A stretch of 64,000 nucleotides of DNA, from positions 27,680-91,679 of the IMG/VR virus record IMGVR_UViG_3300009068_000028; one strand, 5' to 3'. Positions 10,516 to 55,017 of the stretch are shown here, in pieces. The stretch's first letter is position 1, and every line of letters starts with the position of its first letter. The notes below the pieces were generated by a model that made no database searches, had not been told where the DNA came from, and saw nothing but the letters and a program-made list of their open reading frames with translations. The translations under genes and the position numbers were made by a program. The DNA comes from a virus.

Positions 10516-10739
10516 TGACAGTAACAGTATACACAAAAGACAATTGCGTACAGTGTGAAGCAACTAAGCGTCACCTAAACAAGATTGATGTTGCCTATGA
10601 GACAGTTAATATTACAAACAATATTGGTGCTCTTGACAAGTTGATTGCTTTGGGATATCGTTCTGCACCTGTAGTGGTCACAGACGACGACAGCTGGGCA
10701 GGGTACATTCCAGAGAAGCTAGATAAGTTGGCTATCTAG
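10515..10739 (+). CDS. nrdH: NrdH-redoxin
   Basis: 'CVQC' active site, 'GYRSAPVV...WAGY'. Confidence 0.9.
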   Translation: MTVTVYTKDNCVQCEATKRHLNKIDVAYETVNITNNIGALDKLIALGYRSAPVVVTDDDSWAGYIPEKLDKLAI

Positions 10740-14861: not shown

Positions 14862-15384
14862 AGACCTTACTGTAGAACACCTTGATGAAATAAACAAGGT
14901 TGTAGAAAAGTATCTTCAGGGTTCTGAGCCTACACAAATTTCTAAAGAGCTTGCTATGCCACGCACAAAGGTTGTTGCTCACATCAACCAGTGGAAGCTT
15001 ATGGCTGCAGACAATGCTGCAATCCGTGCTCGTGCAAAAGAAGCATTGGTCGTTGCAGATACACACTATAATAAACTAATTAGCAAGGCATATGAAGTCA
15101 TTGACGATGCCACTACCATAGCTAACCTTGGTGCAAAAACTGCAGGGATTAAGCTAGTTCTTGATATTGAGTCTAGGCGTATTGATATGCTACAAAAAGC
15201 AGGACTGCTAGAAAACAAAGAGTTAGCAGACGAAATGTTGGAGATTGAGCGTAGACAAGATATCTTAAAAGATATTCTAAAAGATATTGCTGCAGAGCAT
15301 CCAGAAGTTCGTGACAAGATTATGCGTAGACTATCGGAGATCTCTAAAAATCAAGAGGTGATTACCGTTGTCAGAGATGTTTGA
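14851..15384 (+). CDS. Probable terminase small subunit
   Basis: N-terminal HTH, helical, directly upstream of terL. Confidence 0.55.
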   Translation: MSFEDLTVEHLDEINKVVEKYLQGSEPTQISKELAMPRTKVVAHINQWKLMAADNAAIRARAKEALVVADTHYNKLISKAYEVIDDATTIANLGAKTAGIKLVLDIESRRIDMLQKAGLLENKELADEMLEIERRQDILKDILKDIAAEHPEVRDKIMRRLSEISKNQEVITVVRDV

Positions 15385-17161: not shown

Positions 17162-17557
17162 GTGAGTTTAGGCATTGTTTATTTTTCTAACTATTCTGGA
17201 AACACTAAAAGATTTGTAGAAAAGTTAGGGCTAGAATCAATTAGAATTCCAATTAAGGATTCTGATAATCCAATTATAGTACCAGATAGATACGTACTAT
17301 TTGTTCCTACATATGGTGGTGGGAGCGAGAATCACGCTATTCCAAAACAGGTTCGCTCATTCCTAAACGTAGAGTCGAACAGGCAGAAGATGATTGCTGT
17401 CGTAGGTCTAGGAAACACAAACTTTGGGGAAGACTACTGCAAGGCTGCAGACATGATTGCAGCTAAAACAGGTGTCCCCATATTAGGCAGGGTAGAGATA
17501 TTCGGCACAGAAGAAGACACAATAACAATTAAGGAAAGGTTGGCGATGTTAGTATGA
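17162..17557 (+). CDS. nrdI: Flavodoxin NrdI
   Basis: '[13 protein letters not shown]', 'PTYGGG', 'GNTNFG'. Confidence 0.95.
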
Positions 17558-19671
17558 CAAACGCATACAGTTACCACGAGCTAAACGCAATGCTGAATCT
17601 TTATGACGAGAACGGTCAAATTCAGTTTAACAAGGACAAGGAGGCTGCAAAGGCATACTTTCTTGACCACGTAAACCAAAATACTGTTTTCTTTCACAGC
17701 CTTGAAGAAAAGCTAGACTATCTAGTTGAACACGAATACTACGACAAAGATGTTTTAGACCTGTATGACTTTCCATTTATTAAGTCAGCATTTCAACACG
17801 CATACGCCAAGCGTTTCCGCTTCCCAACATTCCTTGGAGCATACAAGTTCTATACTTCATATGCCCTCAAGACGTTCGATGGCTCACGCTACCTAGAACG
17901 ATTTGAAGATCGTGTAGTTGTTACAGCTCTTATGCTTGCCAATGGAAACAAAAAACTTGCGATGGATATAGTCGATGAACTAATTTCTGGTCGCTTCCAA
18001 CCTGCTACACCAACATTTCTCAATGCTGCTAAGAAACAAAGGGGAGAGTTTGTTTCTTGCTTCCTACTCCGTATTGAGGATAACATGGAATCGATTGCTC
18101 GTGCAATTAATTCCTCACTCCAGCTTTCAAAACGTGGTGGTGGTGTAGCACTAAACCTTACAAACCTTCGTGAAGCAGGTGCTCCAATTAAAAAGATTGA
18201 AAACCAGTCTTCTGGGGTCATTCCAGTAATGAAGCTTCTCGAAGACTCATTCTCTTATGCTAACCAGCTAGGTGCTCGTCAGGGGGCTGGGGCAGTGTAT
18301 CTAAACGCACACCACCCAGATATCCTTAGCTTCCTAGACACTAAGCGTGAGAATGCAGACGAGAAGATACGTATCAAGACTCTTAGTATTGGTGTCGTTA
18401 TTCCAAACATTACATTAGAACTTGCTAAGACTAACGAAGATATGTATCTCTTCTCACCATATGACGTTGAACGTATCTACGGATTGCCTATGAGTGATAT
18501 TTCTGTTACTGAAAAGTATCAAGAGATGGTTGACAATCCTGAAATTCGCAAGAGCAAGATCAAGGCTCGTGTCTTGTTTGAACGTATCGCAGAACTTCAG
18601 TTTGAGTCAGGGTATCCTTACATTGTCTACGAAGACACGGTAAACGATGCTAACCCAATTGATGGTCGTATCAATATGTCCAACCTTTGCTCTGAGATTC
18701 TTCAGGTAAACACACCAACAACGTATAATGCAGACCTAAGCTACGATAGCATTGGTAAGGATATCTCTTGCAACCTTGGTTCACTAAACATTGCTGCAGT
18801 TATGGATGGTCAAAACTTTGAGAAGACTATCGAAACATCAATCCGTGCATTGACAGCAGTTGCAGATATGTCTTACATCGAATCTGTAATGTCAATTGCT
18901 GAAGGCAACAAGAAGTCTCGTGCTATTGGTCTAGGGCAGATGAACCTACACGGCTACCTTGGTCGTGAGCAGATCCACTACGGCTCTGAAGAGGGTATTG
19001 ACTTCACCAATATCTATTTCTACACTGTCCTGTACTACGCTCTAAAGGCATCTAACAAGCTTGCCAAAGAAACTGGTAGCCCATTCGACGGCTTTGAGCG
19101 TTCCAAGTATGCAACTGGTAAGTTCTTCACTAAGTACATTGAACAGGAGTGGAAGCCATCTACAAAGAAGGTTTCTAAGCTATTTACAGATTCAAAGATT
19201 GAGATTCCAACACAGCAGGATTGGGAATCACTTGCTAAGTCTGTCAAGAAGCACGGTATCTATAACCAGAACCTTCAGGCAGTACCACCAACAGGATCAA
19301 TCTCATATATCAATAACTCAACATCATCGATTCACCCTATCGCTTCTCAGATTGAGATTCGTAAGGAAGGAAAGCTTGGTCGTGTCTACTACCCTGCACC
19401 ATTCCTTACCAACGATAACCGTGAATACTTTGCGGATGCGTATGAGATCGGACCAGAGGCTATCATTGATACCTACGCTGCAGCAACACAGCACGTAGAC
19501 CAGGGGTTGTCACTGACCCTATTCTTCAAGGATACAGCTACAACACGTGACATTAACAAGGCACAGATTTATGCCTTCAGTAAGGGAATTAAAACAATTT
19601 ATTACATCAGAATTCGACAGATGGCTCTAGAAGGCACTGACGTATCAGAGTGTGTAAGTTGTATGCTTTAG
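17554..19671 (+). CDS. nrdE: Class Ib ribonucleotide reductase alpha subunit
   Basis: '[10 protein letters not shown]', 'SCFLL', 'SNLCSE', C-terminal 'ECVSCML'; no ATP cone. Confidence 0.97.
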
Positions 19672-20631
<960 letters not shown>

Positions 20632-27103: not shown

Positions 27104-27314
27104 CTCTCTAGAACAAATGGAGACCATTGTAGAAAACAATAAGTCTCTTCTCTGGGATGGTTGGAATGTAAAAGAAATTACGCCATCACCAACTGGATGG
27201 ACAAAGCCAAGCGGCATGTTCCGTAATAACGAGTGGTTCATTCAGAAACACTACAATCTTAGATATGATGGTTGGGATATCCCCAATAAGTTTGTGGGGA
27301 ATGATGCAAAGTGA
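27093..27314 (+). CDS. Hypothetical protein
   Basis: 73 aa ORF with RBS. Confidence 0.55.
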   Translation: MKINSLEQMETIVENNKSLLWDGWNVKEITPSPTGWTKPSGMFRNNEWFIQKHYNLRYDGWDIPNKFVGNDAK

Positions 27315-27588
27315 AGAATGGAAAAAACAAGCACGATGCGAAGGTTACGACACAAACCTATTCTTCGACAAATATGAAGAAGATCTTGACCTCAGAGTGG
27401 GGATAGACAATCTTTGTGCAGGGTGTCCTGTTGCAAGACTATGTTTTGCTACTGGAGTTTCTCAAAAAGCTTGGGGAGTCTGGGGTGGGGTATATCTTGA
27501 AAACGGAAAGATCTCACGAGAATTCAATAAACACAGGTCAAAGGCTGATTGGGCTGAGACCTGGCAATCTTTAGTAACGGATAGATAA
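27301..27588 (+). CDS. whiB: WhiB-family Fe-S transcription factor
   Basis: 'W...A.C...FF', 'CAGCPVARLC', 'GVWGG'. Confidence 0.88.
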   Translation: MMQSEEWKKQARCEGYDTNLFFDKYEEDLDLRVGIDNLCAGCPVARLCFATGVSQKAWGVWGGVYLENGKISREFNKHRSKADWAETWQSLVTDR

Positions 27589-37833: not shown

Positions 37834-38589
37834 ATGAATAAATACAAAATTGCTACATTAGTGGGAGTCGCATCTGTTGCACTTACCGCTACTACAGCAC
37901 TTGCATGGAGCCACGATCTTTCGATTCGTGCTCCTTATACACATGCTGCTGGTGCAGCAACTGCCACTATTGTTGGAGCAAAGCCCAACTGTGATGTGCA
38001 GTCTAAGTTGTTTGATGAAACAGCAACTGCTGATAACGAAGCAGTAGCTGCTCCTGACGACAAGGCTGTTAAGACTCGTGTTGCTAACGCAATTACGAAG
38101 TTCCCTGGAGTTGAAACCGCAAGGGTTTCGTTTACTCCTTCACTCGCTGGTTTCTACCAGATCGAGAGTGCCATCGTAGAAGTTGGTGTTAACTGCAAGA
38201 AGCTTATTGGTGATGTAACTGCAACCAAGGATATTCTTGTCGGAGACAATGTCTACATTGATACTTTTACATGGGATGAATCAGCAGAAGTACACGCTGG
38301 TCAGAACGACTATGATGTTCAGTTTGTTGGTGACGTTCGTACCAATGCTACATCAGACCGTCTTCGTGCAGGTGTAACTGTTCAGCTCTGGGTTCCTAAC
38401 CTTGCTGGAACCAAGATGGTTCTTGTTGACAGTGACACCACTGATGCTGATGGAGAGTTTGAAATCGAATACCGTTGGGATGCAGATCGTCACGGTACTG
38501 AAGACTTCCAACTTCGTGTAGCTCGTACTGCTAAGTTCTTCCAGGACTACAGCAGTGACGTTGCCGATGGTGAAGTAGACGTTCTCTAA
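37834..38589 (+). CDS. Secreted beta-rich protein
   Basis: Signal peptide ending 'ALA-WS'; flanked by hairpins. Confidence 0.65.
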   Translation: MNKYKIATLVGVASVALTATTALAWSHDLSIRAPYTHAAGAATATIVGAKPNCDVQSKLFDETATADNEAVAAPDDKAVKTRVANAITKFPGVETARVSFTPSLAGFYQIESAIVEVGVNCKKLIGDVTATKDILVGDNVYIDTFTWDESAEVHAGQNDYDVQFVGDVRTNATSDRLRAGVTVQLWVPNLAGTKMVLVDSDTTDADGEFEIEYRWDADRHGTEDFQLRVARTAKFFQDYSSDVADGEVDVL

Positions 38590-38651
38590 TTAGATAAATC
38601 AAAAAGTGGGGGGTAACGAAAGTTGCCCCTCATTTGCTATATAATAATACT

Positions 38652-39272
38652 ATGGAAACTTCCCTAGTTAAACTAATCCCATTGAAGAAGAAACATGCTT
38701 TGGATCTTTACTTCAATGTTAAGTCAAATGATAATGTGTTTCGTAATCTTTTATGGGACACACCACAGTCAGTTCTTGACTATGTTGCAATCGTAAAGCA
38801 ACTCAAAAAGCATACATCCTTTGCGGTAATAGATAAGGACACCAACGCTATTGTTGGCACAACATCCTACGTTGACTATTCTACAGAAGACCGATCAGCA
38901 GAAATTGGCGGTACATTCTATTCTGAATCCGTATGGAGAACTCACGTTAATACCCATACAAAGTATCTAATGCTACAGAATGCATTTGAGATACTAGGAT
39001 GCGAGAGAGTAATGTTCAAGACAGATGTTCTCAATGAGCAATCAAAGAAAGCAATCCTAAGACTTGGTGCTACCTACGAAGGAACCAAGCGTCATAACAA
39101 ACTCAGAACTGATGGGACCTGGAGAGACACAGCATACTTCTCTATACTTGGTGATGAGTGGGATGAGATCAAGTCTACAATTTTCGGGGGAATCAAAAGT
39201 GATAACGAATATCCCCTATATAACAACATACCTATAGTACCTATAGAAGTATATAGACCTATGTGGTTTTGA
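38652..39272 (+). CDS. RimJ/RimL-family GNAT acetyltransferase
   Basis: 'AEIGGTFY...W', 'LGCERV...TDVLNEQS..AI.RLGA..EG..R'. Confidence 0.88.
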   Translation: METSLVKLIPLKKKHALDLYFNVKSNDNVFRNLLWDTPQSVLDYVAIVKQLKKHTSFAVIDKDTNAIVGTTSYVDYSTEDRSAEIGGTFYSESVWRTHVNTHTKYLMLQNAFEILGCERVMFKTDVLNEQSKKAILRLGATYEGTKRHNKLRTDGTWRDTAYFSILGDEWDEIKSTIFGGIKSDNEYPLYNNIPIVPIEVYRPMWF

Positions 39273-39342
39273 GCCTATAGACCTGTTTGACATCAGAGGA
39301 TACAGCTCGATACAGCCCATTTTAGAGCTTCTCAGAGCATAG

Positions 39343-39957
39343 TTATGCACAGTTTTATCCACAAAGATCTTACTGATATGGATATTATCTGACTGAAAGA
39401 AGATGTTTGAAAAGTTGTTTGATGTACTGAACTATATATAGTATGGATCGTAATGTCCAAACACTATATCTTGTGTCCCCAAACACCCAAATCCAGCCTT
39501 GTACCACATCTACCCCCATTTGTCAACCCCTATATGTAGTATATTTATGCCCAAAAAACCCTATATATTGTGTATAAATATATCAAAACATCCTATTTTA
39601 TATCAAAAATATCCACAAATCTGGGAAAAATAATCAAGGGTTCGTAATGTCTTTGTTTATAGTTATATAGGGGGAAATGCTTATACTTAGCTGCCCCAAA
39701 TATCTATACCAAACCATCCTATTAGACATGTCCACATTTCGGGGGTATCAAATAGAAGATCGTAATACCTTTAGTATATATATTACCTATAGGAGAAACA
39801 CTGTATCGTCTGATACCCTCCAAACTTTCTGGGATTTTTTGAGATGCCTCGTAATGTCTGTAGAATTTGGGAAAAATGTTTAGGGGTTCGTAATACATGT
39901 TCGTAAAGGGATGTTTGTTAGTATGTTATGACATGGCTCGGGCAAAAGTTATCCACA
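39343..39957. promoter_or_regulatory. Non-coding control region with DnaA boxes, NrdR-like box pairs and iteron-like repeats
   Basis: TTATCCACA at 39355 and 39949; NrdR-like 16-mers at 39429, 39461, 39527, 39558; four GGG-N15/16-TCGTAAT units. Confidence 0.7.
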
Positions 39958-39958
39958 G

Positions 39959-39991
39959 AAAAATCCCCCACCTGTGAGTAGATGGGGGATT
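39959..39991 (-). terminator. Intrinsic terminator of the reverse-strand block
   Basis: aatccccca...tgggggatt hairpin with a T-tract on the minus strand. Confidence 0.65.
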
Positions 39992-40003
39992 AGACTATTA
40001 CTG

Positions 40004-43000
40004 TTAGACCGAAGACATCAAATCGTCTAAATGCTCGAAGCCTGTATCGTCAATGCCAAGACCAGCAAGCAATAAGTCGAATGTCTCGTTGATGAAATTA
40101 GTAGCAAGGTCAGTCGTGTCTACGATACCTTCGTTGATTGCGTAAGCAAGTGGCAAACCCAAATCGTTGTATTCGATAAAGTCTACAAACGCTGTGTCTG
40201 TTCGATAGTTGAGCCAAATGTCAGACAGAATAACTGTCTTGTTCTCAAAGGTAGTCGTAGTCATTGTGCTTGTTCTCTTTCTCATCTTTTAGTAAATCTG
40301 CCATTAGCAGAATACGGTTGATAGTTACATTGGGACTGATTTGGTGAATATACATTGCTACCGCTTCCAAATCCAGTCGTAGGTCTGAAACAAGATTGCC
40401 GATTGTTTTGGCAACTCGTTCATTGTCTGTTATTACTTTTCGCATTTCTCTCCTCAATCCATTATACCAAAAAAATGGTGGGAACGCAAGTCCGAAAGGA
40501 AATAAGAAACCTACGCCCCCACCAGTTTGTAGACGGAACCCCCATTCAACGTCTACCTATCTAGTACTACATTGTACTAGAATCTGATATAACTATAGAT
40601 GGGTCCTTACGAATGTGATCGATTTCGATACCCCTCAGAATTTTGGTAATGCGTCGTGTAGGACTCTGGAGCTGGTCTGCAAACACCCACCAGTCACTGC
40701 CGTATTCATCCATCGGAAACTGGTCTGCAATCCAGGCAGTCTCATAGAAGTCACACTCAATGAGCACACCTGTCTCATACTTGCGTGTACCGTTGTCGTC
40801 AGACTCATAGATGTATGGTTCGATAGTTAGTTTGTCAGACCACGTAGTGCCAGCCTCTTTACTCCAATCCTCACGGTAGAAGATGTTGAGGTCAATCGTT
40901 CTATAGCCTTGCATTAGTACCACTCCGTTCGATATCCAGTTCCAGCACAGTTGCCACACGTTTCATCTTCCTCGCCATTAGCAGAGGCACACTGCTCACA
41001 CTCTACATCTCGTGAGACAGGAACTTCATAGTCTTCGCCATCTGGGACAGGGATTGTACCAACATAGTAACCCAAACGATTGACAGCGTGGTAACCACTA
41101 CAGATACTAATATAGTCGTCTCCAGCCAAGTAAGTCCAAACAAGTCCGTCTGCATTGTGTCGTACATCTTCCCAATCCTGAATCATCTCATAGCCAAGAC
41201 CAAACTTCTCTTCGGCTTCTTCCATTGTTATAATCATTACTAATCCTTTCTTAGAAGTGGAAGTCCACAGGGACGAGGAACCAAAGAGTATCATTCTCGA
41301 TACGGTCTTTGTTCATATGAACAGGGTTAGTTGACCAGTTGGCAAGGTCGTAGAAGTAAGAGTTGAAATCCCAATCACCTTGAATCATACCAAGCATTCT
41401 GCCAATACCATAGAGTCGCATACTATAATCCATAGCACCGTCAAACTCGTCAAAGACACCGTCAAGATTGATGTTGCTACGATTCCATTCATCACGGTAG
41501 CGATTGAATTCCGACATTCGTGCTTCGACACAATCCTTCAGTATCAATTCGAATGCTTCACTATCTTTAGAAGAAACAATCATGTTGATTGCTCCGTCAG
41601 TGTAGGGGTCGTTGTCAGTGTTGAATCGTCCACCACCAGTTACAAACCAGTCGTACCAAGCACCACCACCATATTCGTCACCAAGAATGTCTTGGAGTCT
41701 TTCTCGAACTTGGTCAATTGCTTCTTCAGGGCTGTCTGCTTTTACTGCGATGTATTGTAGAACGTGCATGTGTTTCCTTTTCTTTAGGGGTAGTATCTAT
41801 TTTACAGCATGGAGCGGTATTTGTCAAGTATCACACTTCTCACAGTATACCCTTGACCACCGACACGAAATGATCCTCGCATAGATAGCCATAGTCCTCT
41901 ACGTCTCGTTTGGTAGCAGGTTCCTTACACCAAATCATTTCACACACATAGATATATGGTTGCATTATTCGTTATCCTGAATGTCAAAGTCCCACTGTGC
42001 GTGGTTCTTGTATGGTTCGAAGTCGTCTATAATCCATTCGTCCAATGCTTGATAGGCTGCATCTTCACTCTCTGCTTCAACAGGAACGAGGTACTCAATC
42101 TGCACGGTTGCTGTGATTAGATATTTACGCATACATCCTCTTATCGTTAGTTACGAATACATCTTCCGACCACGGCTTCTCGGTAATGAAATAGCCAAGA
42201 CGATTGAATTGGCGGTAGCCATTCCAAAGATTAGCATACCGTCCGTCACCATCTACCATAGTCCATACATAGCAAGGAAGAGTAGTGTCAGGGATATCCT
42301 CAAGTTCTAAAGCCAATGGGGTAGTTGGCAGATAGGTGTCTTCCCATTCGTCCCAAGTAATCATTACTTATCTCCAAAGTTATTGCTGTCATAAGGGTCA
42401 ATGAATGCTTCCCAGTCACCGTCAGGCATATCCTCGTGAACAAGAATTGCTTTCTCGATTGCTTCTTCTTCGCTGTTTGCTTGAATCCAGTAAGTCGCCT
42501 GGTATTCTACTTGATATACTTTCACATTACTCCTCGTCCATAAATTTGATAAACACTTCTACTAACTGTAATGCTATTATACCAGTGAGGTACGACATAG
42601 AACTCATACTCTTGAATTCCTGAATCTTATCTAGAATCTGTTGCTTGGCTTCTTCTCGTTCACTCATAGGGACACCTCACCGTATTGGTCATAGTTCTCG
42701 GCAAGGCTTTCGTCTTCCCAATCTGAATTGAGATGCCACTTGGTTGCTTCGTTATTGAAAAGATTGACAAGCATATTCTCAGCCTCGTCGTCAAAGTGAC
42801 CAGTATCCCAATCACTGAATCCAACTACAGCAAACTTGATTTGGGCAGGGTATTTGATATGGTCATAGATATAAACCATTACCTTAGTTGTCATCTTCGT
42901 CCTCCTCAATCTCTTCTACCTCAACCTCGTACACACCGTCATAGTTTAGATTGTCGTAGTGATAACCAATCTCCTCTGCCTTTGCCTGACTGTCTGCTTC

Positions 43001-43048
43001 AATCGTGCCAGTAAAGGTGACTAGGGTTTTTACATAATACTGAGCCAT
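40004..43048 (-). CDS. Cluster of about 11 small, mostly acidic hypothetical proteins (e.g. 40004-40264, 40245-40445, 40567-40914, 40914-41237, 41251-41769, 41965-42132, 42125-42364)
   Basis: Tightly packed minus-strand ORFs with aaagga/ggag RBS. Confidence 0.6.
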
Positions 43049-43256
43049 TGGGCTACCTTTCTTTTTGGGTTACCTCTATTATATCGTTGACCACCGACAT
43101 CAAACTGGGTAAATTCGGGAGAATTCGTAATGAGTTCGTAATGATTCGATAATTACTGTTTGTTTATTATGTCAGCAGCCCGAGCTGCCTGTGGATAAGT
43201 CTGTGGAGATCCCCCAAAGGGGGAGGCAGTTTATACTGTTGCCCAGCAGTTACGGA

Positions 43257-44279
43257 TTATACTCCCAGCATTACGGAAGCGACTACACGAGCCAAGCGGT
43301 TCTTCTCTGCGTTGAGAGCAGGGTCAAGTCCACTAGCACCAGCGAGAATGTTCTCGTTGTTTCCGCCACGAGCGGTGCGATACCAGTCAAGGCGTTCCGT
43401 CAAGGCGTTGAGAGTACCCCAAGCCGTTCCAGTAATTGTGTTGTTGTATTGCCCAACATAAATGTCGTTGATAAGGTCAATCTTGTCGTTGTGCTTCTTG
43501 AAAGAACCTTTGGCATCTTTTTCTGGGGCAGGGTAAGCAAGAGAAACAATCTTGTCAAACTCTGCTTTAGTAACTTCAGTTTCAATCATAGCGTTAGCCA
43601 TAACAGAAAACTCGTCAAGGTAAGTCTGTGCCAAGCCAAGTGCTTCACGAGCAACCTGAACACGACCCTCTGCCGTCTGCGTGTGACGGATTTTGAACGA
43701 CTGCTTTACCTTACGGTTAGAACCAATACCGCCACCCAAAGCAAGGTTGAGAGTGTTAGCACACACAACACGGACAGGCGTGATACTTGCCATAATGGAG
43801 ATAGAGCCATCGTGAGATGTGTTGATAAGCAGGTAGTTCTCTACCTTGTCAGCACGACCATTGGGGTCAAGCACAATGTCGTTGTCAAGAGCGAGAGAGC
43901 CAAAAACTACACGACCACCCTTGATTGAACCAGCAGTCTCCCAACGACCACCACCGTCAAGCAGGTTGTCACCAAAGGTGAACAGGTCTTCGTTTTGGAG
44001 AGTGTGGTAGCGTTCACCCACAACGCCAAGCACATCATTCTGTGACTTGTCGAATGGGTTGGTACGACAAACAAAATAGTTTGTCTTGTCAGATACATAA
44101 CCTTCTGGGAACGAGAGTTCCTCAAGACGAACATTCCAGTTGTCAAGGTGAGCCAACTTGAGCATTTCGTCTGTGGTAACTTCGTCTTCAAAGACAGTCC
44201 CAAGTTTGTGCCAAGCAGGTTCTCGCAATGAAGCAAAAGCCACTTCGCCGTTAGCACCGATTTCTAATTCGTGAGCCAA
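43257..44279 (-). CDS. DUF932 / phage-plasmid-like protein
   Basis: 'REPAWHKLG', 'WETAGSIKGG', 'NTSHDGS', 'TPVRVVCANTL', 'IRHT'; TTG start after RBS gaaagga. Confidence 0.88.
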   Translation of the reverse strand: MAHELEIGANGEVAFASLREPAWHKLGTVFEDEVTTDEMLKLAHLDNWNVRLEELSFPEGYVSDKTNYFVCRTNPFDKSQNDVLGVVGERYHTLQNEDLFTFGDNLLDGGGRWETAGSIKGGRVVFGSLALDNDIVLDPNGRADKVENYLLINTSHDGSISIMASITPVRVVCANTLNLALGGGIGSNRKVKQSFKIRHTQTAEGRVQVAREALGLAQTYLDEFSVMANAMIETEVTKAEFDKIVSLAYPAPEKDAKGSFKKHNDKIDLINDIYVGQYNNTITGTAWGTLNALTERLDWYRTARGGNNENILAGASGLDPALNAEKNRLARVVASVMLGV

Positions 44280-44587
44280 TGTATTTCCTTTCGTTGTTGT
44301 TGATAATCTAATTATACACCTGACCACGGACATCTAACTATTCTGGGGAACATTCTGGGAGGTTCGTAACCTAAACGTAATAACTATGTTAGGACATGGC
44401 GGCTCGGGGATCCCAGCTGACAAAACAAAAATCCCCTGCTACCAGCAATCTATCCAGACGCTTCGCAGGGGACTTATGTATGGAAGTTTATTTCAATTAG
44501 ACGGCTTCTCATTCCACCGTAGCCCTAGTCTAACCTAGACGGTTATCATCTACACACCGACAAACTCACCCCATATTTCAGGGGAAG

Positions 44588-44659
44588 CGACCTCATAGGG
44601 ACTCGAACCCTAACCTCTACCTCGACAGGGTAGCGTGATAACCTTTTCACTATGAAGCC
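44588..44659 (-). tRNA. tRNA-Asp(GTC)
   Basis: Acceptor ggcttca/tgaggtc, anticodon arm ctacc-ctGTCga-ggtag, T arm taggg-TTCGAGT-cccta. Confidence 0.85.
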
Positions 44660-44718
44660 AATGTTTCTCTGTGTAGTTATAGATTGGGCAGTTTAGACTG
44701 TTACCCAGCAGTTGCTCG

Positions 44719-45177
44719 TTAGAGGAGTTCCATCACCGTGTTGTAGGTGCTGGCATTGACTTCCTCTTGGTTGGTCATTTTGAGAACTTTGAGGTTCTTT
44801 TTGAGCAAGTCCAACTTGGTGGTGTATTCACGACCATAGTGCTGACGGTCATTAGGGTTGGTGGGCTGTTCTGGTGCTTGGGGCAGAGCAAGCAAGTCAG
44901 TATTGACCTGAATGTTTACGCCATAACCACCATAACGGTTTCCAGCACTAACACGAACAAGAGCGTTGGTGTCATACTCGCCACCAATGTTGTCAGGGTT
45001 CTTGATTGCCTCAACAACAGCATTGAGAACCAACTCTTGGTGTGCCTTGTATGCCTGACGGTATGCTTCCATATCGGCAGGGTATGTAGCCATCTCTGCC
45101 TCAATCTTGGCAATAGTAGCCTCAACATCAGCAATCAGAGTAGCGGTTGGGATTTTCACGGAGAGTGAACGAGCCAT
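44719..45177 (-). CDS. Hypothetical protein
   Basis: 152 aa, RBS gaaagga, own promoter. Confidence 0.7.
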   Translation of the reverse strand: MARSLSVKIPTATLIADVEATIAKIEAEMATYPADMEAYRQAYKAHQELVLNAVVEAIKNPDNIGGEYDTNALVRVSAGNRYGGYGVNIQVNTDLLALPQAPEQPTNPNDRQHYGREYTTKLDLLKKNLKVLKMTNQEEVNASTYNTVMELL

Positions 45178-45294
45178 TGGTTTAGTCCTTTCGTTTGGCT
45201 TATATCTATATTATATCATTGGGGTATGACATATAACTATTGAGTTAGGTGGGCAGTTTGACTTGATACCCAGCAAGCAGACTAGGGTCTGACC

Positions 45295-45447
45295 TTAGTT
45301 GCTGGAAACCGTAGTCCAGCGAGGCTGTCCTGCGACATCAAGACGAACACGGAACGAACCGTTTGCGTTCTTGACAACTTCCTGAACGATACCAGAAACG
45401 CCAGACTTCTGCGTGGTGAACGACTGACCGATTTCGATTTGCGACAT
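45295..45447 (-). CDS. Small SH3/Tudor-like protein
   Basis: 50 aa 'MSQIEIGQSFTTQKSGVSGIVQEV...', preceded by TTGACA-17-TATAAT (45503-45531). Confidence 0.55.
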   Translation of the reverse strand: MSQIEIGQSFTTQKSGVSGIVQEVVKNANGSFRVRLDVAGQPRWTTVSSN

Positions 45448-45788
45448 TGTGTACCTTGCTTCCTTGTAGTGAGCCAACTGTTTTGTTTGCTTCGTTATTA
45501 CCATTATACAGGAAAGGAAAGAGTTTGTCAAGTCTTTTTCTCAACTTTTTTATTTTTTTTGTGGGGACTTCCGACTTCGTTTCCCTGCCTGTAATACAAG
45601 TATACCAACGACCACCGACATATAACTAATCGTTTCGGGGGATTTTTGTAACAGTTCGTAACCTGTTTGTCATAACATAGGCGGCTCGGGGATCCGCAGG
45701 GCATAGAGAAAGGACAGTTTATAAAGGACATGTCCAGGTCCTCGTCCAGTGCAGGGGAAAGGACAAACAATACCCTGCAGCTGGGAGC

Positions 45789-46438
45789 CTAACTCTCTTC
45801 GATTTCTCCTACATCGAATGACTGGACACAGAAATCTTCTACGTCTGTGTTGTAGCAATCAAGGTTGAGTTCCCCAACTTCGAAATGTTCAATGTCAAAG
45901 TCAGCAGGGACTAACATTGTTGCTTCAACAGTCAACGGAATCGTGACGGTAATCTCACGAAGGAGCGAGATACCAAGTACGTCAGCAACAGAATTCGCTA
46001 CTGTCTGAACGTCAATGTCCTCAGCAATTGCTTCCAAGAGAATCAATCGGATGTTCTCGTTTTCCTCGTTACGACGGATAGACATACCAAGATTATCTTG
46101 ATTGAGACCTGTAGCCTGTGCTTCCAAGTCTTTGATGTACTCATTCATTTTGCTAAGTACTGGGTGATTGTTTTCCATTAGTTGTCCTCTGCTTCTTGTG
46201 CGATACCGTTGAGTTCGTCAATTGTCTGTGTGAGTACCTGAAAGTCCTCTTCCGACAAAAGTAGTTGTGACATTGCGTGTGCCATAAGTCCTGTGATTGT
46301 CTGCCCGAAAATGTTGAGAGCAATCCGACGGTCTTCATCGGTTTCTGCGAACAGTACCATACCAGACGCAGTCTGTGTCATTACATCCTGCGAAACATCT
46401 TCGGCAACCTGCCGTAGTCCAAATGCTATGTCAATCAT
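45789..46438 (-). CDS. Two acidic hypothetical proteins (45789-46178, 46178-46438)
   Basis: Coupled ORFs behind a repeat promoter. Confidence 0.65.
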
Positions 46439-46487
46439 TCTTTGTCCTCTCGTTGTTGTATTACCATTATACCGTTCACCACGGACA

Positions 46488-46916
46488 TCAAACTATGTCC
46501 ATTAGTTTGCCATTGACTAATACCTGTGGTCGTTCAGGGTAGTGGCGTACCCAACCATAGTCCTCAAAGGTGAAACGGATACCATACACCTCATAAATAA
46601 ATGAACGTGCCTGTCCAGAGATATCTATGAATTTGTCAAGGGTAGACAAATCGAAATTCGGAATGTCACCCTGTTCAGAGTAGTCACCAATAACAACTAC
46701 CCTGTCACCAGTCCAACGACCAATGAAGTCTGCCATTACCTCTGCCCAGAAATCTCCACCACCACGCATAGGTGAGCAAGTGGTGAGGACATACATCATA
46801 TCCGAAAGTGATGCCTCGTGACCTGTGTGTTCACGTTGCTTCGCACCCAGACCAATGTCGTGAGGGTGAATGACTTCTTGCTTGTCAAGGTTGTAAATGC
46901 TGTGGTATTGTCCCAT
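46488..46916 (-). CDS. Conserved phage hypothetical protein
   Basis: 'MGQYH..YNLDKQE', 'GRWTGDRVVVIGDY'. Confidence 0.7.
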   Translation of the reverse strand: MGQYHSIYNLDKQEVIHPHDIGLGAKQREHTGHEASLSDMMYVLTTCSPMRGGGDFWAEVMADFIGRWTGDRVVVIGDYSEQGDIPNFDLSTLDKFIDISGQARSFIYEVYGIRFTFEDYGWVRHYPERPQVLVNGKLMDIV

Positions 46917-47306
46917 TGTGTGTCCTTTTCTTTGTCTGTCTTATAAGTATACCCCAGACCACGGACATGAAACTCTGGGAATCTGGATAGTTAGTCGTAA
47001 TTCTTAATAACGTTTAGGTAACGAAGCGGCTCGGGATCCCCTACCTACCTCACATATTTCTTATCGAGAACATCATAGATATATGCGTTAGGATAAGTAA
47101 CCTTGACAGAAAGTAGGAATCGCATAGCAGCTTCTTCATTACGGAATGTAGCGAGTTTACTCTCTTTACCCTCGCCAGCCCACACCTGATATTTGAGTAC
47201 ATAGTCAGTCATTAGTAGTTCTCTCCGAATATATCAAGTATAGCGGATACCTGTTCATCTGTCAACCTGTCAACAACTTTCCAGTCGATTACGTTTTCCC
47301 AGTCCA

Positions 47307-47916
47307 TTAGCAATCACCCTCTACGTCCTCAAAGATAAATGCGTCAAGACGGTGTTGGTCAACAAAAGTACCTGCGTCAACATACGGACTGTCCTTGTAA
47401 GTGACTCCGTGTGGCAATTCGATTACTTCATCATAGTCCCCTGCCGATACTGCCACAACGGCGGCAACGGCAGACTGTACCATAAACTGCGGAATTGGGG
47501 GGTAGCAATTCGATGAAAAGTGAATACTGATAGCGTCCTCTAAAGAGAGGTGAGCGTCAGTAGCGAGAGAGTAAGCGGTTGAGTATCCCATTAGTGTCCT
47601 TTGTTCGATAGTCTAATTATACAGGGTAGGTCTGACATCAAACTAATGTGTAAGTCCAAATTTCTGTTTCGTTGGCACAGTCCCAGATAGCCTTTTGTAC
47701 GAATTGGATAGCCAATTTTCCAGCGGTATCCAAGTCAGCCACCCAAACACTACGGTCACAAAACACTTCATCAGTTTCAGGATTAGTCCACACTCCAACA
47801 TATTGTCCGTCAAGTGTATCGTCAAGGGTAGTTTCACCAATAGCCACCCAATAGCCAGTCTTGGCGTGAGAGAGAATGAAAGTGTCATTCAGTTTGAGGT
47901 AAGTACCGTCTTTCAT
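47307..47916 (-). CDS. Two hypothetical proteins (47307-47591, 47638-47916)
   Basis: Each has an RBS aagga and its own repeat promoter. Confidence 0.6.
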
Positions 47917-48043
47917 AGTGTGTCCTTTCGTTGTCATACTATCATTATACCAAGTACCACCGACATGAAACTCTGGGATTTCGGGAAACATATCGTAAGG
48001 TTAGTAATGAGTTTGTTATGACAAATGGGCTCGGGCGACCCTG

Positions 48044-48595
48044 CTAGATAGCAGAGCCTCTCACGACAATCCAAATCAGAGCCTGTGCGGTGCGAGGTGT
48101 CAAACCAAACTCACCAGCAACCTTGCGAACGGCGTTAGCGATAGCGTGATACTGTCCCTGCGTAGGGCTGTCCGTAGGCATTTCGGCTGCTCTCATCATC
48201 CATACATCGACAACCACAGCGTCAGTATCGCCAAAGATAGCACGAGCGAATGCGTTAGTTTTGAGACCTTTGAGACCGTCAATGCCTTCGTTCAGCACAT
48301 CATTAGCCATTTTAGTGTTGTTTTTGAGACCATTCACGTGGTATCCAAGCGAGAATGCGACTGCCTTAGTGATGTTGCTTGCCCAACGCTCACGTGGGGA
48401 GAATGCGGAGACAACGCCAGCACCAATCTCAAGCGAGGCATTGAGGTTATTGGCAACCTGCTGTGCGACTTCCTGTGCTTCGTGATACCAGACACTAGCC
48501 TGTTCGACCTGTCCAAGTGTCGCCTTGAGAATGAGGTTACGGAACAAATCCGTAGCAGTAGCGGTTACGATTTCGTTTGCGGTGAGAGTAGTCAT
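48044..48595 (-). CDS. HhH-GPD-like DNA glycosylase-fold protein
   Basis: 'WY', 'SP..RW..N', 'GLKTNAF', 'VVVDVW..RA', 'QALIW'. Confidence 0.55.
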   Translation of the reverse strand: MTTLTANEIVTATATDLFRNLILKATLGQVEQASVWYHEAQEVAQQVANNLNASLEIGAGVVSAFSPRERWASNITKAVAFSLGYHVNGLKNNTKMANDVLNEGIDGLKGLKTNAFARAIFGDTDAVVVDVWMMRAAEMPTDSPTQGQYHAIANAVRKVAGEFGLTPRTAQALIWIVVRGSAI

Positions 48596-48796
48596 TACTT
48601 TGTCCTTTACTTTGTTGATAGTTCTATTATACATCTGACCACCGACATATAACTAGGAAAAAATCCAGGGGAATCTTAAAGTGTTTCGTAACTAAATTGC
48701 CCGATCCAGATCAGCTCGGGACCTGTGGATAACTTTTAGTCGTTAAACCACGCCAGGAATATGATTAGTATCCCCAGCGTGGCAACGATTACAAAC

Positions 48797-51700
48797 TCAA
48801 TCATTCTCTACGCCATTCCAACAAGCAGAGATAAAACGGTCAGCAATAAATCGTTTGTTGTCCTGTGCCATCAGTCCAGCAAAATCGTGAATGAGAATAT
48901 CGAATGTCTGCTCATCTATTTTGAGAGCGTAGGTGTTCAGCAATTCTGAAACGGCTACATAGTCTTTGCGTGTCATCATTAGGATACACTCACCCAAGCC
49001 ATAGCGGTACGCAAAAGGTGGTTGTAGTCACCAGACATACTCTCTTTGAGATATTCGTCAATTTCCTCTTTGGAAACTTCTGCGTTACGGAGAGCCTTCT
49101 GAACAGCACCCATAATTGCGTAGGCGTTGCCGTCTTGCCCAATGAGTTCGACTTCGATTTCTGGATACTTTGTCATTAGTTTTCTTCCTTTTCGTTTGCT
49201 TTTTGTTCTGCCAATTCGAGCATACGGTTTCGTTCTTTTTCCGTGAGCATAGCCCAAGCGTATCCAAACGCATAGGCGTAAGCCATATCACTTTGTCCGT
49301 TGTTTGCCTTTTTGAGATTGGCGATTACTTCATTTGAGCGGTTGATGTTACTTGTCATTTCTTGTCCTTTGTTCGTATTACTATTATAACCTAGACCACC
49401 GACATCAAACTATTCGTTTTCACGAATGGCTTGTGTCTTGATTGCCTTGCGAGTACGCAAACGATTTGGTCGATTGTCGTGAGTGCCAGCCGCCGATGAA
49501 CGACGGATTTCACGCATAGCCTCAATATAGGGCTTGTTCTCAATACCTTTGTGAGTTGGGTTCTTTTTCTTCATAGTCTTATTATACATCAGACCACGGA
49601 CACCAAACTGGGATTTTTGGGGAAAACGCAATAATGTTCTTAATTACGCAAGAAATCTGCGTGGCTCGGGGATCCTGTGGATAACCTCTGGGGATAACTC
49701 CCCTAGCAGGGAGCGATATCCTCATTTGGCACAATAGCAACGGTATCCGTTCCAAGCACCAGAATGTGCGACCATTCATCGCTCTGGAAAATCAACTCGG
49801 CACGACGGATATCCTCGTGGTCAGTACCAATGTAGTTTACGAATGTCATTTTTTTGTCCTTTTCTTTGTTAGTCTAATTATACTGCCTAGCACCGACATA
49901 TTACTCTGCGTTGCTCCCATAAAACTGGACTCCGAATCCGCATACGGTACAGTCTGCCCAAATTATCTCAGAGTCACCAAGGCGTTTAGGCTGTTGGTCA
50001 AGGTCTTCAGTGAATAACGTTCCCCTGTCGCAGATATAGCATTCTGCCTCATAGGTTATGACTCGCTTGCTCACGCTACCTCCGACAATTCGTCTGCGGA
50101 TACAGAGACATTACCGATGATAACGCCTATCGCACCCATGTTCACTAATTCGTTTGCCACAAAGTATCGGCATTCGAACGGAACATTATAGGCGATAAAC
50201 TTACCGTCTCCGTAGTTTGCTGTAATCTTGACCATCTTCATATTTCTGTCCTTTTCTTTCTCTAAGTATAACATCAACCACCGACACATAACTAGCCAGC
50301 GAAGTCCCAAGGGGAGACATCAAACTCCCAAACGCTCCAAGTGTCAGGCAATTGCCTAGCACAGCCTTCACAGGCTGCCTGAGAGATATTTCCCTGAGTA
50401 ACTCCAACGGTGGCGAGGTTGTCGCAGAATTCACATTCCATATTTTTTGTCCTTTCCTTTCTCTAATTATAACACTGACCACGGACACCAAACTATCTGG
50501 ATTCAGGAAAATTATCCACAGCCACGTAATTGCCCTGTGGATAAGTCGGCTCGGGCTCCGCAAAAATCTTGCGTGGGGAGAGATTTATTTGCTCTTGCGA
50601 GGCTCACTCTCTCCCCTGCGAGATTAGACTACATAACGCTTGTGGATTTCCATAGCGTCACGAGCGATAAGCGTAGTCCAGCCTTTGGGAGACTCGTCGA
50701 TTGCGACAGCGTAGGCAACATAAGGCTCGTTAGCCTCAATGCCAAACTGCTTACGGTAAGGTGTGCCAACATAAATTGACTCCACCTGCTTGACTTCGCC
50801 AACATATTTGTTGTCGTGAGACTGAATTGTGTATCCGATTAGTTCTTTCATTTTTTTCCTTTTCTTTCTTGTATTACAATTATACTGCCGACCACCGACA
50901 TATAACTATGCCCAAATATCTAAGAGGTTTTGGTAAGTGACCATTCGTGCGTAGTGAAAGGTTTCCATAACCTTATCGCCTCGCTCAATTGCGTCTGCCA
51001 TATCCTTTTCGTTGTCAGCGATAAATCCAACAATCATAGCGGTTGGGAGAGTGATTTCGTTTTTCATAGTTTGTCCTTTGTTCATACCTTCATTATACAG
51101 TCGAGCACCGACATGAAACCCATCAATTCAGGGGAAACGCAACTATCTTCATAAAGACGCAATAAACTTGTGCCGCCCGAGCCCAGGGTATGTCAGGACA
51201 AAATCCTCCCTAGAACCAATCTTCTTCAGTAGTAGACACACCAAGAATTCCGCCTGGCAAATAGAATGGGCGAGCATCCTGGTGACAGAAGAGGCAACGC
51301 TGAAAGCCATCAGCATATTGGAAAATCTGGGAAGTCTTTTCCCAGCAGTTGTGACAGGTGTGGACAGGGCGAGAGAATTCATCAAATGTGTTCATACACA
51401 CATTATACCAAAGACCACGGACACGTAACTCTGTGGATTCAGGAAAAAGGATCTTAATTACGTAAAGAGTTTGCTTGATCCAAAATGCCCGAGCCAGCCT
51501 GTGGATAACTTTGGGGCTAGGTTTATTTGCTGTGGATAAGTACAGGCTCACCCTAGCCCCTGTGGATAACTATGCCTTGTTTTCTTTGCCACCGTTTTGG
51601 ATACGGACAAGCGTACGGTCTACGATTTTGGAAACCAAACGCTTGGGGCTACGGTAAATTTCACTAGCCTTTGGGTAGACAATGGTGTAGGAAGCCCAAC

Positions 51701-53032
51701 CGACAGCATAATCGGTACGAGCGATATCCTTTTCCACGTCTTCACGGAAAGCGAGAAATTCGCCAAGCGTATTGGCAACGTGGACAACGGTCTTACCGTC
51801 CCAACGGCGTACGAGGTGGAATTCGATTTCTGGAATGCTTTTCATTTTTGTCCTTTTCTTGTTTTTGTTTATATCTAAATTATACCAGCGACCACGGACA
51901 CGTTACTCGTGGTGGACGGTGACAGCGAGTGCTCCCATTTCGAACATAGTTTCGACTGTGACATCTACCATCCAAGGGTCTACTAAAACGCTTACGTTTT
52001 TTGGGTTGGTGGCGAAGATTGCTTTGATTTCCATTTTTCTGTCCTTTGCTTATATTCATATTTTACCACGGAGCACGGACACGTAACCCTAGAATCCAGG
52101 AAAATTCAGGGGAATTTCGTAACAATTCGTAACTTAGTTGCTAACAGCCTGTGGATAACTTGCTCGGGCTGCCTGTGGATAACTTTTTGGGGGTGTGGAT
52201 AAGTCGATCTGGCTACTGTTCCAAATAACAGGCTAGACAAATCTCATAGGCAATAAATCCTAGAGTGTCTTCATCAATTTTTCGTCCACAGTCATTACAC
52301 TTAGTCACAGTCTATCGCTTCATCAGTTGGCGAGTGAGTGAGAGTGCTTCCTCAAAATCGTGATTTGTGAACACATTACCCTGAGCCAATTTCACCAGAG
52401 CGTTTAGGCGTAGTGCTTTTTGCTTAGGTGTGAGAGCGTTGATGTTGATGTCCTCAACTTCGTTGATGTCAATTTCGATTTCTAATTCGTTCACTTGATT
52501 TTCCTTTTCTTGATTACTTACAGTATGACAGAGAGCACGGACATGAAACTACATGCCCAGAGTCTGGCGAGCAACCAGAGTGATTTCCTCATCTGAGAAT
52601 TCTGTTTGGGTAGCCAACAGAGCGTTGTAGTTTTGGGTATCACGGTAGACAGCGTTTCCGTAGTCAGAGAATACCGATGTGATGGCTGAAATCTTAGCCT
52701 GTACCAATTCTTCTTTTGTAGTCATATTTTCTATCCTTTTCTTTTTCTTTATATCCACATTCTAACATCGACCACGGACATGAAACTATCCAGATAGGCG
52801 AATATCTGCCTATTGTTACGTTTTGTTACCATTCTGTTATAAATCTGGGGAATCTATATATAGTACGTAAATGTCTATGCTGCCACTACATCTAGCCCGA
52901 GCCCTGTGGATAACTTGTACCCAACTACTCCCTACTGAAACGCAGGGAGATAGCCAACAGAGCCAGAGCAGTGGCACTCAGTCCAGATACCTTGGCAGTC
53001 TGAGCAGTGATACACATAGTCTTGATTTTTCA
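48797..53032 (-). CDS. Array of about 14 very small hypothetical proteins (e.g. 48979-49176, 49176-49358, 49410-49574, 50071-50241, 50624-50851, 51210-51395, 51570-51845, 52312-52494, 52549-52725)
   Basis: Most have their own repeat promoter and an aaagga RBS. Confidence 0.55.
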
Positions 53033-53373
53033 TTTTTGTCCTTATCTGAAACCGTGAGATTTATTTGCTCTGAGAGGCTCATACCCTTTGGGTCTTATTT
53101 GCTCTGAGAGGCTCACTCTCTGCGGTTTCTCTGTTTGTTTATATTATCAGTATAGCCGTGACCACCGACACCAAACTATCAAAAACAGGCTATTTGCAAT
53201 GTATTTGCGTGAAATCAGGGGAATGTTGCGTAAGGTCATAAAACACGCAAGATTATTGCGTTTGGCTCGGGCATTTTTGTTCATCTATTGTTTACCTAAA
53301 TAGGCACGGTATCAGTAGTTATATGTCTGTGCTCAATGTTAGTATGAATACATACAAAGAAAGAAGAAATCAA

Positions 53374-54314: not shown

Positions 54315-54524
54315 TCACCATTTATGTATAGGACAATAAGCATGAGCTAACTTAGTCTTCATCCTCATAAAACATTTACATATTGTACACGTATGTGCAA
54401 ATGAATTATATAAAGGACATTCTCGGCATATGGCTAATCGTTCGGTTTGAAGTTCTTTGGTGGTACGAGGCTGTGCTGGGTTTAATAGGTCCCAGGGTCT
54501 AACAGGCTTTTGTTCGTCGGTCAT
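54315..54524 (-). CDS. Cys-rich small protein (DUF6171-like)
   Basis: 'RLAICRECP...CTICKCFM..KTKL...CPIHKW'. Confidence 0.65.
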   Translation of the reverse strand: MTDEQKPVRPWDLLNPAQPRTTKELQTERLAICRECPLYNSFAHTCTICKCFMRMKTKLAHAYCPIHKW

Positions 54525-54723
54525 ATATCTAGTATATCAACACATTCAGTGTGTCAACACATACTTCCCCATGTGAGATGTTTTTATATCCTTGTTTGGG
54601 GATAGGGTGTTTGGGGTACTCTATCCGCCGCCGAATTTTCCGCTTCGCTAAAAACACACTATATCTAGTTATTGTCGAAGAACTTTATATCAAGATGTAG
54701 TAAATTGTATATATAATATTGTT

Positions 54724-55017
54724 ATGGACCTTGCTTTGCTTCAAATGATATTTGGTATCTGTATCAGTGTTGCTACAGTTATTACTATTTCAGCAGCAGG
54801 AGTCAGATGGTTAGTCAGACACTACTTCGACGATATCAGAAAAGAACTTAAACCAAATAGTGGTAGTTCTATGAAAGATCAAATAACTAGACTTGAGGGA
54901 GATGTCTTAGACTTAAAAATTCAGAATCAGCAAGGTGAAAGATTTCACGAAAAGCTAGATGATAAAATTGATAAATTGACCGAACTTTTTGTTCAGTATG
55001 TTGCTAAAATTAAATAG
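54724..55017 (+). CDS. Single-TM coiled-coil protein
   Basis: TM helix followed by 'ELKPNSGSSMKD'. Confidence 0.65.
   Translation: MDLALLQMIFGICISVATVITISAAGVRWLVRHYFDDIRKELKPNSGSSMKDQITRLEGDVLDLKIQNQQGERFHEKLDDKIDKLTELFVQYVAKIK

Follow-up and report, generated by a model that had tools for sequence, protein, structure and literature searches.

The genome of an uncultured actinophage carries, in a non-coding gap between two convergent genes, four 16-bp boxes that form two pairs of the kind recognized by NrdR, the bacterial repressor that senses the levels of DNA precursors (dATP/ATP). The observation is real and lies far beyond chance, and the reading of the boxes as NrdR operators, which we draw from their sequence, is well supported. 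The four boxes are probably two genuine sites for the host NrdR in the control region of one actinophage sub-clade, from which the repressor would be released as dATP drops. We infer NrdR binding, the direction and product of a promoter under these pairs (pairs 1 and 2) and the timing logic of the response. The analysed window is a 64,000-nt stretch (positions 27,680-91,679 of IMG/VR record IMGVR_UViG_3300009068_000028), that is, the last 64 kb of a 91.7-kb virus record of ~40% G+C, and all coordinates refer to it (Table 1).

In the literature, paired NrdR sites are regarded as confined to ribonucleotide reductase (RNR) operons, as a 2025 preprint describes for Escherichia coli and Pseudomonas aeruginosa (bioRxiv 10.1101/2025.03.28.645925), and our literature search turned up no account of NrdR boxes in phage genomes. 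Here, four pairs, all of them with conserved counterparts in relatives, lie on a phage without NrdR, and none lies at its own RNR genes. If NrdR binds, phages would have taken over a ready-made dATP/ATP sensor, either for gene timing or for stripping the repressor from host promoters; either outcome would broaden the known role of NrdR and provide a testable handle on how phages sense precursor supply.

Table 1. Positions of the boxes, candidate promoters and neighboring features in the window
Feature	Position	Strand	Sequence or structure	Remark
NrdR box 1, left of pair 1	39429..39444		GAACTATATATAGTAT	11.3 bits, cellular matrix
NrdR box 2, right of pair 1	39461..39476		ACACTATATCTTGTGT	18.3 bits, best single box in the phage genome
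NrdR box 3, left of pair 2	39527..39542		CCCCTATATGTAGTAT	17.5 bits
NrdR box 4, right of pair 2	39558..39573		ACCCTATATATTGTGT	14.9 bits
Third NrdR pair	54656..54703 (boxes 54656/54688)	+	ACACTATATCTAGTTA, 32 bp on TATCAAGATGTAGTAA	19.3 bits, above every shuffle
Fourth NrdR pair	52851..52898 (boxes 52851/52883)	-	32-bp spacing	7.1 bits in this phage
Candidate leftward promoter	39577..39606	-	TTGATA-18-TG-a-TATATT	Consensus scan
Candidate rightward promoter	39839..39866	+	TTGAGA-16-TAGAAT	Right part of gap, no overlap with a box
Conserved non-coding gap	39273..40003		730 bp	Holds the four boxes; majority of columns identical across 9 phages
Intrinsic terminator of the minus-strand early gene block	39962..39991	-	12-bp stem, then T-run
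Perfect DnaA-box sequence	39355..39363	+	TTATCCACA	Second copy 39949-39957
Class Ib RNR genes nrdI, nrdE, nrdF	17162..20631	+
nrdH-like gene	~10521-10691

The boxes and the cellular operators of the candidate host lineage

The four 16-mers occur exactly as the original prediction had written them, with the start-to-start spacings it reported (32 bp in pair 1 and 31 bp in pair 2). All four carry C4 and G13, nine bp apart. Box 2 departs from the 16-mer consensus by a single mismatch, and box 3 shares 15 of 16 bases with the promoter-proximal box upstream of Microbacterium nrdH, TCCCTATATGTAGTAT. The core CTATATNTWGT is present 7 times in the window against 0.51 expected, a count that none of 100 shuffles reached.

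To score the boxes independently of the phage, we used a symmetrised matrix of 50 non-redundant cellular nrdHIEF operator pairs from Micrococcales, the candidate host lineage by relatedness. A first search of the cellular loci by consensus mismatches recovered pairs in just 5 of 80, because high-GC operators deviate from the AT-rich consensus, and iterative matrix refinement was needed. In 68 of the 73 usable loci, the iterated matrix detected a pair of boxes spaced by 31 or 32 bp, 765-1165 nt upstream of nrdE and thus in front of nrdH. The Microbacterium nrdH operator, for instance, reads CTACTACCCCTTGTGG followed 32 bp on by the promoter-proximal box given above, and that of a low-GC Micrococcaceae metagenome-assembled genome (MAG) reads GCACTATATATTGTGG followed 31 bp on by ACACTAGATGTAGTAT.

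Across the whole 91.7-kb genome, pairs 2 and 1 rank first and second with 32.4 and 29.6 bits, respectively, whereas the best pair in each of 200 dinucleotide-preserving shuffles of that genome averaged 8.0 bits (sd 3.6) and never exceeded 17.7 bits. Scored with an actinobacterial matrix, as the prediction had proposed, both pairs lie far above shuffled DNA. Of the single boxes in the phage, box 2 scores highest, box 3 comes second and box 4 fourth, and the best single box in the shuffled genomes scored 14.4 bits on average (maximum 17.5). When spacings from 20 to 44 were scanned, pairs above 20 bits appeared at 31 and 32 only. Judged by sequence, the pairs appear to depart from the NrdR-operator family only in location: they combine C4/G13, A6/T11 with an AT-rich centre, the 31-32 bp spacing and a high score with the cellular matrix, and they sit between convergent non-RNR genes rather than in the promoter region of an RNR operon. 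Capture of a host nrdH promoter was ruled out, as the two box types stand in swapped order relative to the host and similarity is confined to the boxes.

The phage encodes a WhiB protein (27265-27588) and a class Ib NrdE that is 75-78% identical to NrdE of Micrococcales, freshwater MAGs included, and we therefore regard it as an uncultured actinophage, in line with the actinobacterial origin guessed beforehand. Its DnaE-type polymerase is closest to that of Streptomyces phages (56% identity). Two low-GC (37%) Micrococcaceae MAGs are also among the Micrococcales at this level of NrdE identity; their nrdHIEF loci have a G+C content of 37%, unusually low for Micrococcales and near the 40% of the phage, which makes them the most phage-like candidate host lineage seen. 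NrdR is encoded above the curated cut-off in all five candidate host-lineage genomes tested. Sequence searches of the phage genome returned no NrdR or ATP-cone homologue and no stand-alone NrdR-like zinc ribbon, even at E <= 10; such a search leaves room for a phage protein with NrdR-like specificity. Two assemblies labelled Yersinia pestis NCTC5923 and Neorhizobium sp. contain an actinobacterial-type NrdE (76-77% identical) with Micrococcales-type operators and are probably contaminated or mislabelled.

Conservation of the pairs and of the surrounding gap

Searches with the flanking proteins gathered 17 related viral contigs. Both pairs are found at the orthologous place in seven of them, with scores of 16.5-36.6 bits, and the flanking proteins of the relatives that keep the pairs are only 61-95% identical. 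In an eighth relative, pair 2 alone passes the threshold and pair 1 is degraded and recognisable by alignment only. The box 1 orthologue is present in eight relatives and always retains C4 and G13. Over the nine phages, the spacing is invariably 32 bp in pair 1 and 31 or 32 bp in pair 2, whereas the distance from box 2 to box 3 varies (66, 63, 55 or 54 bp). Conservation of the spacing in homologous regions, on which the prediction had staked itself, hence extends to eight related phages.

Positions C4, A6, A8, T9, T11 and G13 are invariant in all 23 distinct orthologous boxes of these nine phages, whereas positions 5, 7, 10 and 12 and the edges (1-3 and 14-16) vary. The information profile of the orthologous phage boxes correlates with that of the cellular boxes (r = 0.69, p = 0.003). 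Published mutagenesis of NrdR boxes (PMC13584703, PMC9110341, PMC12051234) established a crucial role for C4 and G13 and an important one for A6 and T11, and further that the central A8/T9 is largely dispensable for NrdR binding and positions 7, 10, 3 and 14 are free, and that both boxes are needed with a linker constrained in length only. The positions fixed in the phage boxes agree with these data except for the central A8/T9. The NrdR-type identity of the boxes, as originally proposed, is supported by their sequence, their spacing, the independent cellular matrix and the positions fixed in relatives.

More distant relatives, including a complete 94.8-kb genome, carry no NrdR-type pair anywhere and keep the rest of the region; we therefore consider that the operators were added in one sub-clade. 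No DNA similar to the gap was found among deposited phages.

The region has a G+C content of 37%, and the gap is flanked by a GNAT acetyltransferase gene (38634-39272, plus strand) and a gene for a 93-aa protein (40004-40285, minus strand) that converge on it. Frame-specific coding conservation was absent from every frame of both strands, and several frames are broken in relatives; all frames are equally conserved because the DNA itself is conserved. Folding of the two strands gave z-scores of -0.66 and -0.80, which makes a structured RNA in the gap unlikely, and an Rfam scan of 38500-40500 returned nothing above threshold, its sole match being a chance-level sRNA (E = 0.56). In the alignment of nine phages, two blocks are near-invariant, with one variable base each (39365-39397, 33 nt, and 39909-39932, 24 nt).

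The gap also contains other repeats. TCGTAA(T) occurs six times on one strand (39448, 39642, 39760, 39849, 39888 and 39901; TTACGAA when read on the minus strand), and one or two copies are also found upstream of most early promoters. This array persists in distant relatives without NrdR boxes (L010, L013 and L016-L018) and is, by this comparison, older than the boxes. DnaA-box-like sites lie at 39355, 39610 and 39949, and an AT-rich stretch spans 39574-39620. The longer form CTGTGGATAA/TTATCCACAG, a perfect DnaA box plus one base, is present 12 times in the genome against 0.21 expected; all 12 copies are intergenic and fall within 39949-52913 of the window, in the early block, where they are often followed by GCCCGAGC/GCTCGGGC. 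Because the gap is full of such conserved repeats, the boxes could belong to a larger complex that serves a different function.

A DnaA-dependent origin combines a cluster of DnaA boxes with an adjacent AT-rich unwinding element and lies at the strand-skew minimum. The cumulative GC skew reaches its maximum in the gap, as at a terminus, a reading confounded by transcription direction, and an origin of replication at this place is not supported by the skew. Further into the early block, the minus strand of 41855-53170 holds ~20 copies of a promoter family, AGTTTGATGTC[C/G]GTGGTC-N4-TATAAT, each preceding a single small gene or a short run of them; in this family the spacer is taken up by the conserved block, and the match at the -35 position is weak.

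Predicted promoters at the pairs and the phage reductase genes

NrdR-type pairs do sit on predicted promoters in this phage, at pairs 3 and 4. Past the second box of pair 3, after 8 nt, a TATAAT (54712-54717) ends 6 nt before the ATG at 54724, and transcription would therefore start at the A of the ATG (leaderless geometry), with the second box covering the -35 region. Two relatives (G001 and G002) preserve the boxes, the TATAAT and the ATG, whereas the intervening 8-9 nt differ. The putative leaderless gene (54724-55017, plus strand) encodes a 97-aa membrane protein with weak holin-family matches and is followed by an NlpC/P60 peptidase gene and tail genes. Pair 4 scores low in this phage, and its orthologue in G002 reaches 20.7 bits with all key positions kept and differences at positions 7, 10, 12 and 14-16. 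Reading along the minus strand, a conserved TATAAC (52841 to 52836) follows pair 4 after 9 nt and lies upstream of an early-family promoter.

Divergent from pair 3, the minus strand encodes a 69-aa Cys-rich DUF6171 protein (phrog_13558; 54315-54524), possibly a zinc-binding DNA-binding protein. Upstream of the NlpC/P60 gene, 55090-55160 is a degenerate paralogue of the pair 2 region (CCCCATTT..., TTGTCAACCC, TTATGCCCAAA) in which the boxes have decayed.

Pairs 3 and 4 share the geometry of a box followed after 8-9 nt by TATAAY, which neither strand shows at pairs 1 and 2. The original prediction envisaged a leftward RNA from a minus-strand TTGACA abutting box 3. The hexamer exists, at 39526-39521 rather than 39520-39525 (TTGTCAA on the plus strand), and is kept in seven of nine phages without a conserved -10: the position 17 nt downstream reads TACAAG, TGGAAG, TAGAAG or TAGATA, none of them sound, and the proposal is not supported. 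On the minus strand, matches to the promoter consensus overlap the boxes of pairs 1 and 2, none of them with firm conservation. The leftward candidate given in Table 1 would set box 4 at ~+1 and box 3 at ~+32, and its equivalent in the relative L008 is TGGACA-18-TATGAT; it stays a candidate because the first -10 base changes in five relatives. The -10 of the rightward candidate persists among the relatives in the forms TAGAAT, TAAAAT and TAAATT. By analogy with the host nrdH promoter, where TAGTAT may be the -10 judging from its position alone, the TAGTAT that boxes 1 and 3 contain is another possible -10, for rightward transcription.

Pairs 1 and 2 accordingly stand without an adjoining ORF and without a clearly conserved core promoter, and their place between two gene ends is unusual for an operator. 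Their description as operators parked in non-coding DNA is correct as to the place; the absence of a local function that it implied is one possibility, given two sister pairs on promoters. The pairs may allow the repressor to gate a non-coding or antisense transcript where the convergent gene blocks meet.

The RNR gene nearest to pairs 1 and 2 is nrdF, which ends 18.8 kb away. No NrdR pair was found near the phage nrdH or nrdIEF, and apart from the four described here, all pairs in the genome stay at or below 5.8 bits, as anticipated by the view that the phage reductase is not under NrdR boxes. Directly upstream of nrdI, a 594-aa ORF (15368-17152) with weak terminase-large-subunit matches only is an odd RNR neighbor.

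Host repressor, rival explanations and pairs in other viruses

NrdR operators are bound only by NrdR loaded with dATP together with ATP or ADP. Each phage pair would take one dATP/ATP-loaded NrdR tetramer, with one zinc-ribbon pair per box and three helical turns between the two. Such sites would have been placed by a single sub-clade of uncultured actinophages in a conserved non-coding control region between convergent gene blocks; the same phages have two further sites on promoters and none at the class Ib RNR genes that they encode. As long as dATP is abundant, NrdR would occupy the phage sites; when replication depletes dATP, or when there are more phage genomes than repressor molecules, NrdR would leave and the blocked output would be released. 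Lytic phage infection of pneumococcus is reported to upregulate the host NrdR regulon strongly (PMC6755750), and NrdR-gated phage promoters would therefore open during replication.

The sites resemble bacterial operators in build and differ from them in place. Like the operators at the RNR promoters of Streptomyces coelicolor (nrdAB, nrdRJ) and E. coli (nrdHIEF, nrdDG) (PMC9110341, PMC12176259, PMC13584703), each phage pair is built from two 16-bp boxes that are partially palindromic, have an AT-rich centre and carry C4 and G13 at a distance of nine bp; the linker of 15-16 bp between them is constrained in length alone. Unlike them, the phage sites are far from any RNR gene, non-coding and between gene ends. 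NrdR proteins bind heterologous operators in vitro (PMC13584703). The nrdAB promoter of Listeria monocytogenes (PMC12051234, PMC13584703) has two NrdR box pairs 113 bp apart, compared with 98 bp in the phage, and in both systems two tetramer sites lie side by side, with a linker of 15 bp in one and 16 bp in the other. The proximal Listeria pair overlaps the RNA polymerase site of the RNR operon, whereas no gene follows phage pairs 1 and 2, and the pair-to-pair distance drifts among the phage relatives (98, 95, 87 and 86 bp). P. aeruginosa topA (PMC4409342) likewise has an NrdR site at a non-RNR locus, although this is a single box with an activating effect, whereas the phage carries full pairs at canonical spacing.

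Operators for a host sensor that the phage does not encode, tying phage development to host physiology, have a parallel in phi29. This virulent Bacillus phage carries Spo0A boxes on its DNA, that is, sites for a host regulator. The signal there is the sporulation phosphorelay, in contrast to the dATP/ATP state in the NrdR case.

Among the alternatives to a host-timed switch, one that we regard as unlikely, though the least so, is that the sites act as a decoy: multiplying phage DNA would draw the repressor off host nrd promoters, and the derepressed reductases would feed replication. The place of pairs 1 and 2 between gene ends, with neither an adjoining ORF nor a firm promoter, fits this, as do four pairs per phage genome compared with a single pair at the host nrdHIEF promoter, the escape of the phage RNR itself from NrdR, and the derepression of a host NrdR regulon by phage infection (PMC6755750). 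Titration would work together with the many DnaA boxes nearby, of which the 12 perfect copies cluster in the same 13 kb. However, the fixed register of pairs 3 and 4 with -10 elements would be superfluous for a pure decoy, many such pairs in other viral contigs lie 20-80 nt upstream of an ORF, and dATP depletion alone would already free NrdR. If the decoy were true, NrdR titrated by phage DNA would open host dNTP synthesis.

Less probable still is the explanation that a phage-encoded DNA-binding protein recognizes the boxes, or that they belong to the phage replication origin, and that they merely resemble NrdR boxes. The DnaA-box sequences and AT-rich stretch of the gap would suit an origin, the six same-strand TCGTAAT copies form an array that predates the boxes and persists in relatives without them, and the small Cys-rich DUF6171 protein is encoded beside pair 3. 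Against this, the match is to a matrix of cellular operators and at NrdR spacing only, and the fixed positions, bar the central A8/T9, are those that mutagenesis ties to NrdR binding (PMC13584703). Moreover, searches of the phage down to E <= 10 returned no NrdR-like zinc ribbon, cumulative GC skew peaks here in a terminus-like manner (with the confounding noted above), and relatives lacking the boxes retain everything else in the region. A chance cluster of AT-rich palindromes in intergenic DNA that is itself AT-rich, to which the low G+C content of the region and the similar-scoring single boxes in shuffled genomes might point, is refuted by pair scores 6 to 7 sd above the shuffles and by the retention of both pairs and their spacing in relatives with diverged flanking proteins.

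Host NrdR sites of this kind may extend beyond the sub-clade. A strict pair pattern (CTATATNTWGT, N20-21, CTATATNTWGT) matches at least 113 viral contigs, compared with only 19 when the linker is set to 18-19 bp. In the 107 distinct viral pairs among the matches listed, the positions left free by the pattern follow the NrdR consensus, in that 79% have A at position 3, while position 15 is G or A and position 16 is T. Among the matches listed, 28 of the 48 records tested encode NrdD and 5 of 48 a class I or II reductase; for the 32 RNR-encoding records among them, the pair lies >10 kb from the RNR gene in 23 and within 5 kb (<=5 kb) in 3. Most pairs among the matches listed are intergenic, many within ~100 nt upstream of an ORF, and the ORFs that follow include genes for an NAD-dependent DNA ligase, an AAA_24 ATPase, an MT-A70 methylase, a terminase and a portal protein.

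We tentatively propose that many phage lineages use NrdR pairs away from RNR genes as a clock or a sponge and that, in the present phage, the NrdR sites and the 12 DnaA boxes form a joint array; such an array, if real, would be aimed at two host proteins through which replication is coupled to precursor supply. In the clock version, the host NrdR would act as a sensor of the dNTP state that times phage genes, in this phage the holin-like gene and the output of the non-coding hub. Among the IMG/VR contigs (L122-L234), perfect NrdR-type pairs occur in many large AT-rich phages, tens of kb from nrdD, and one 42-bp version of the pair recurs with hardly any change in seven or more contigs, which are 95-156 kb long.
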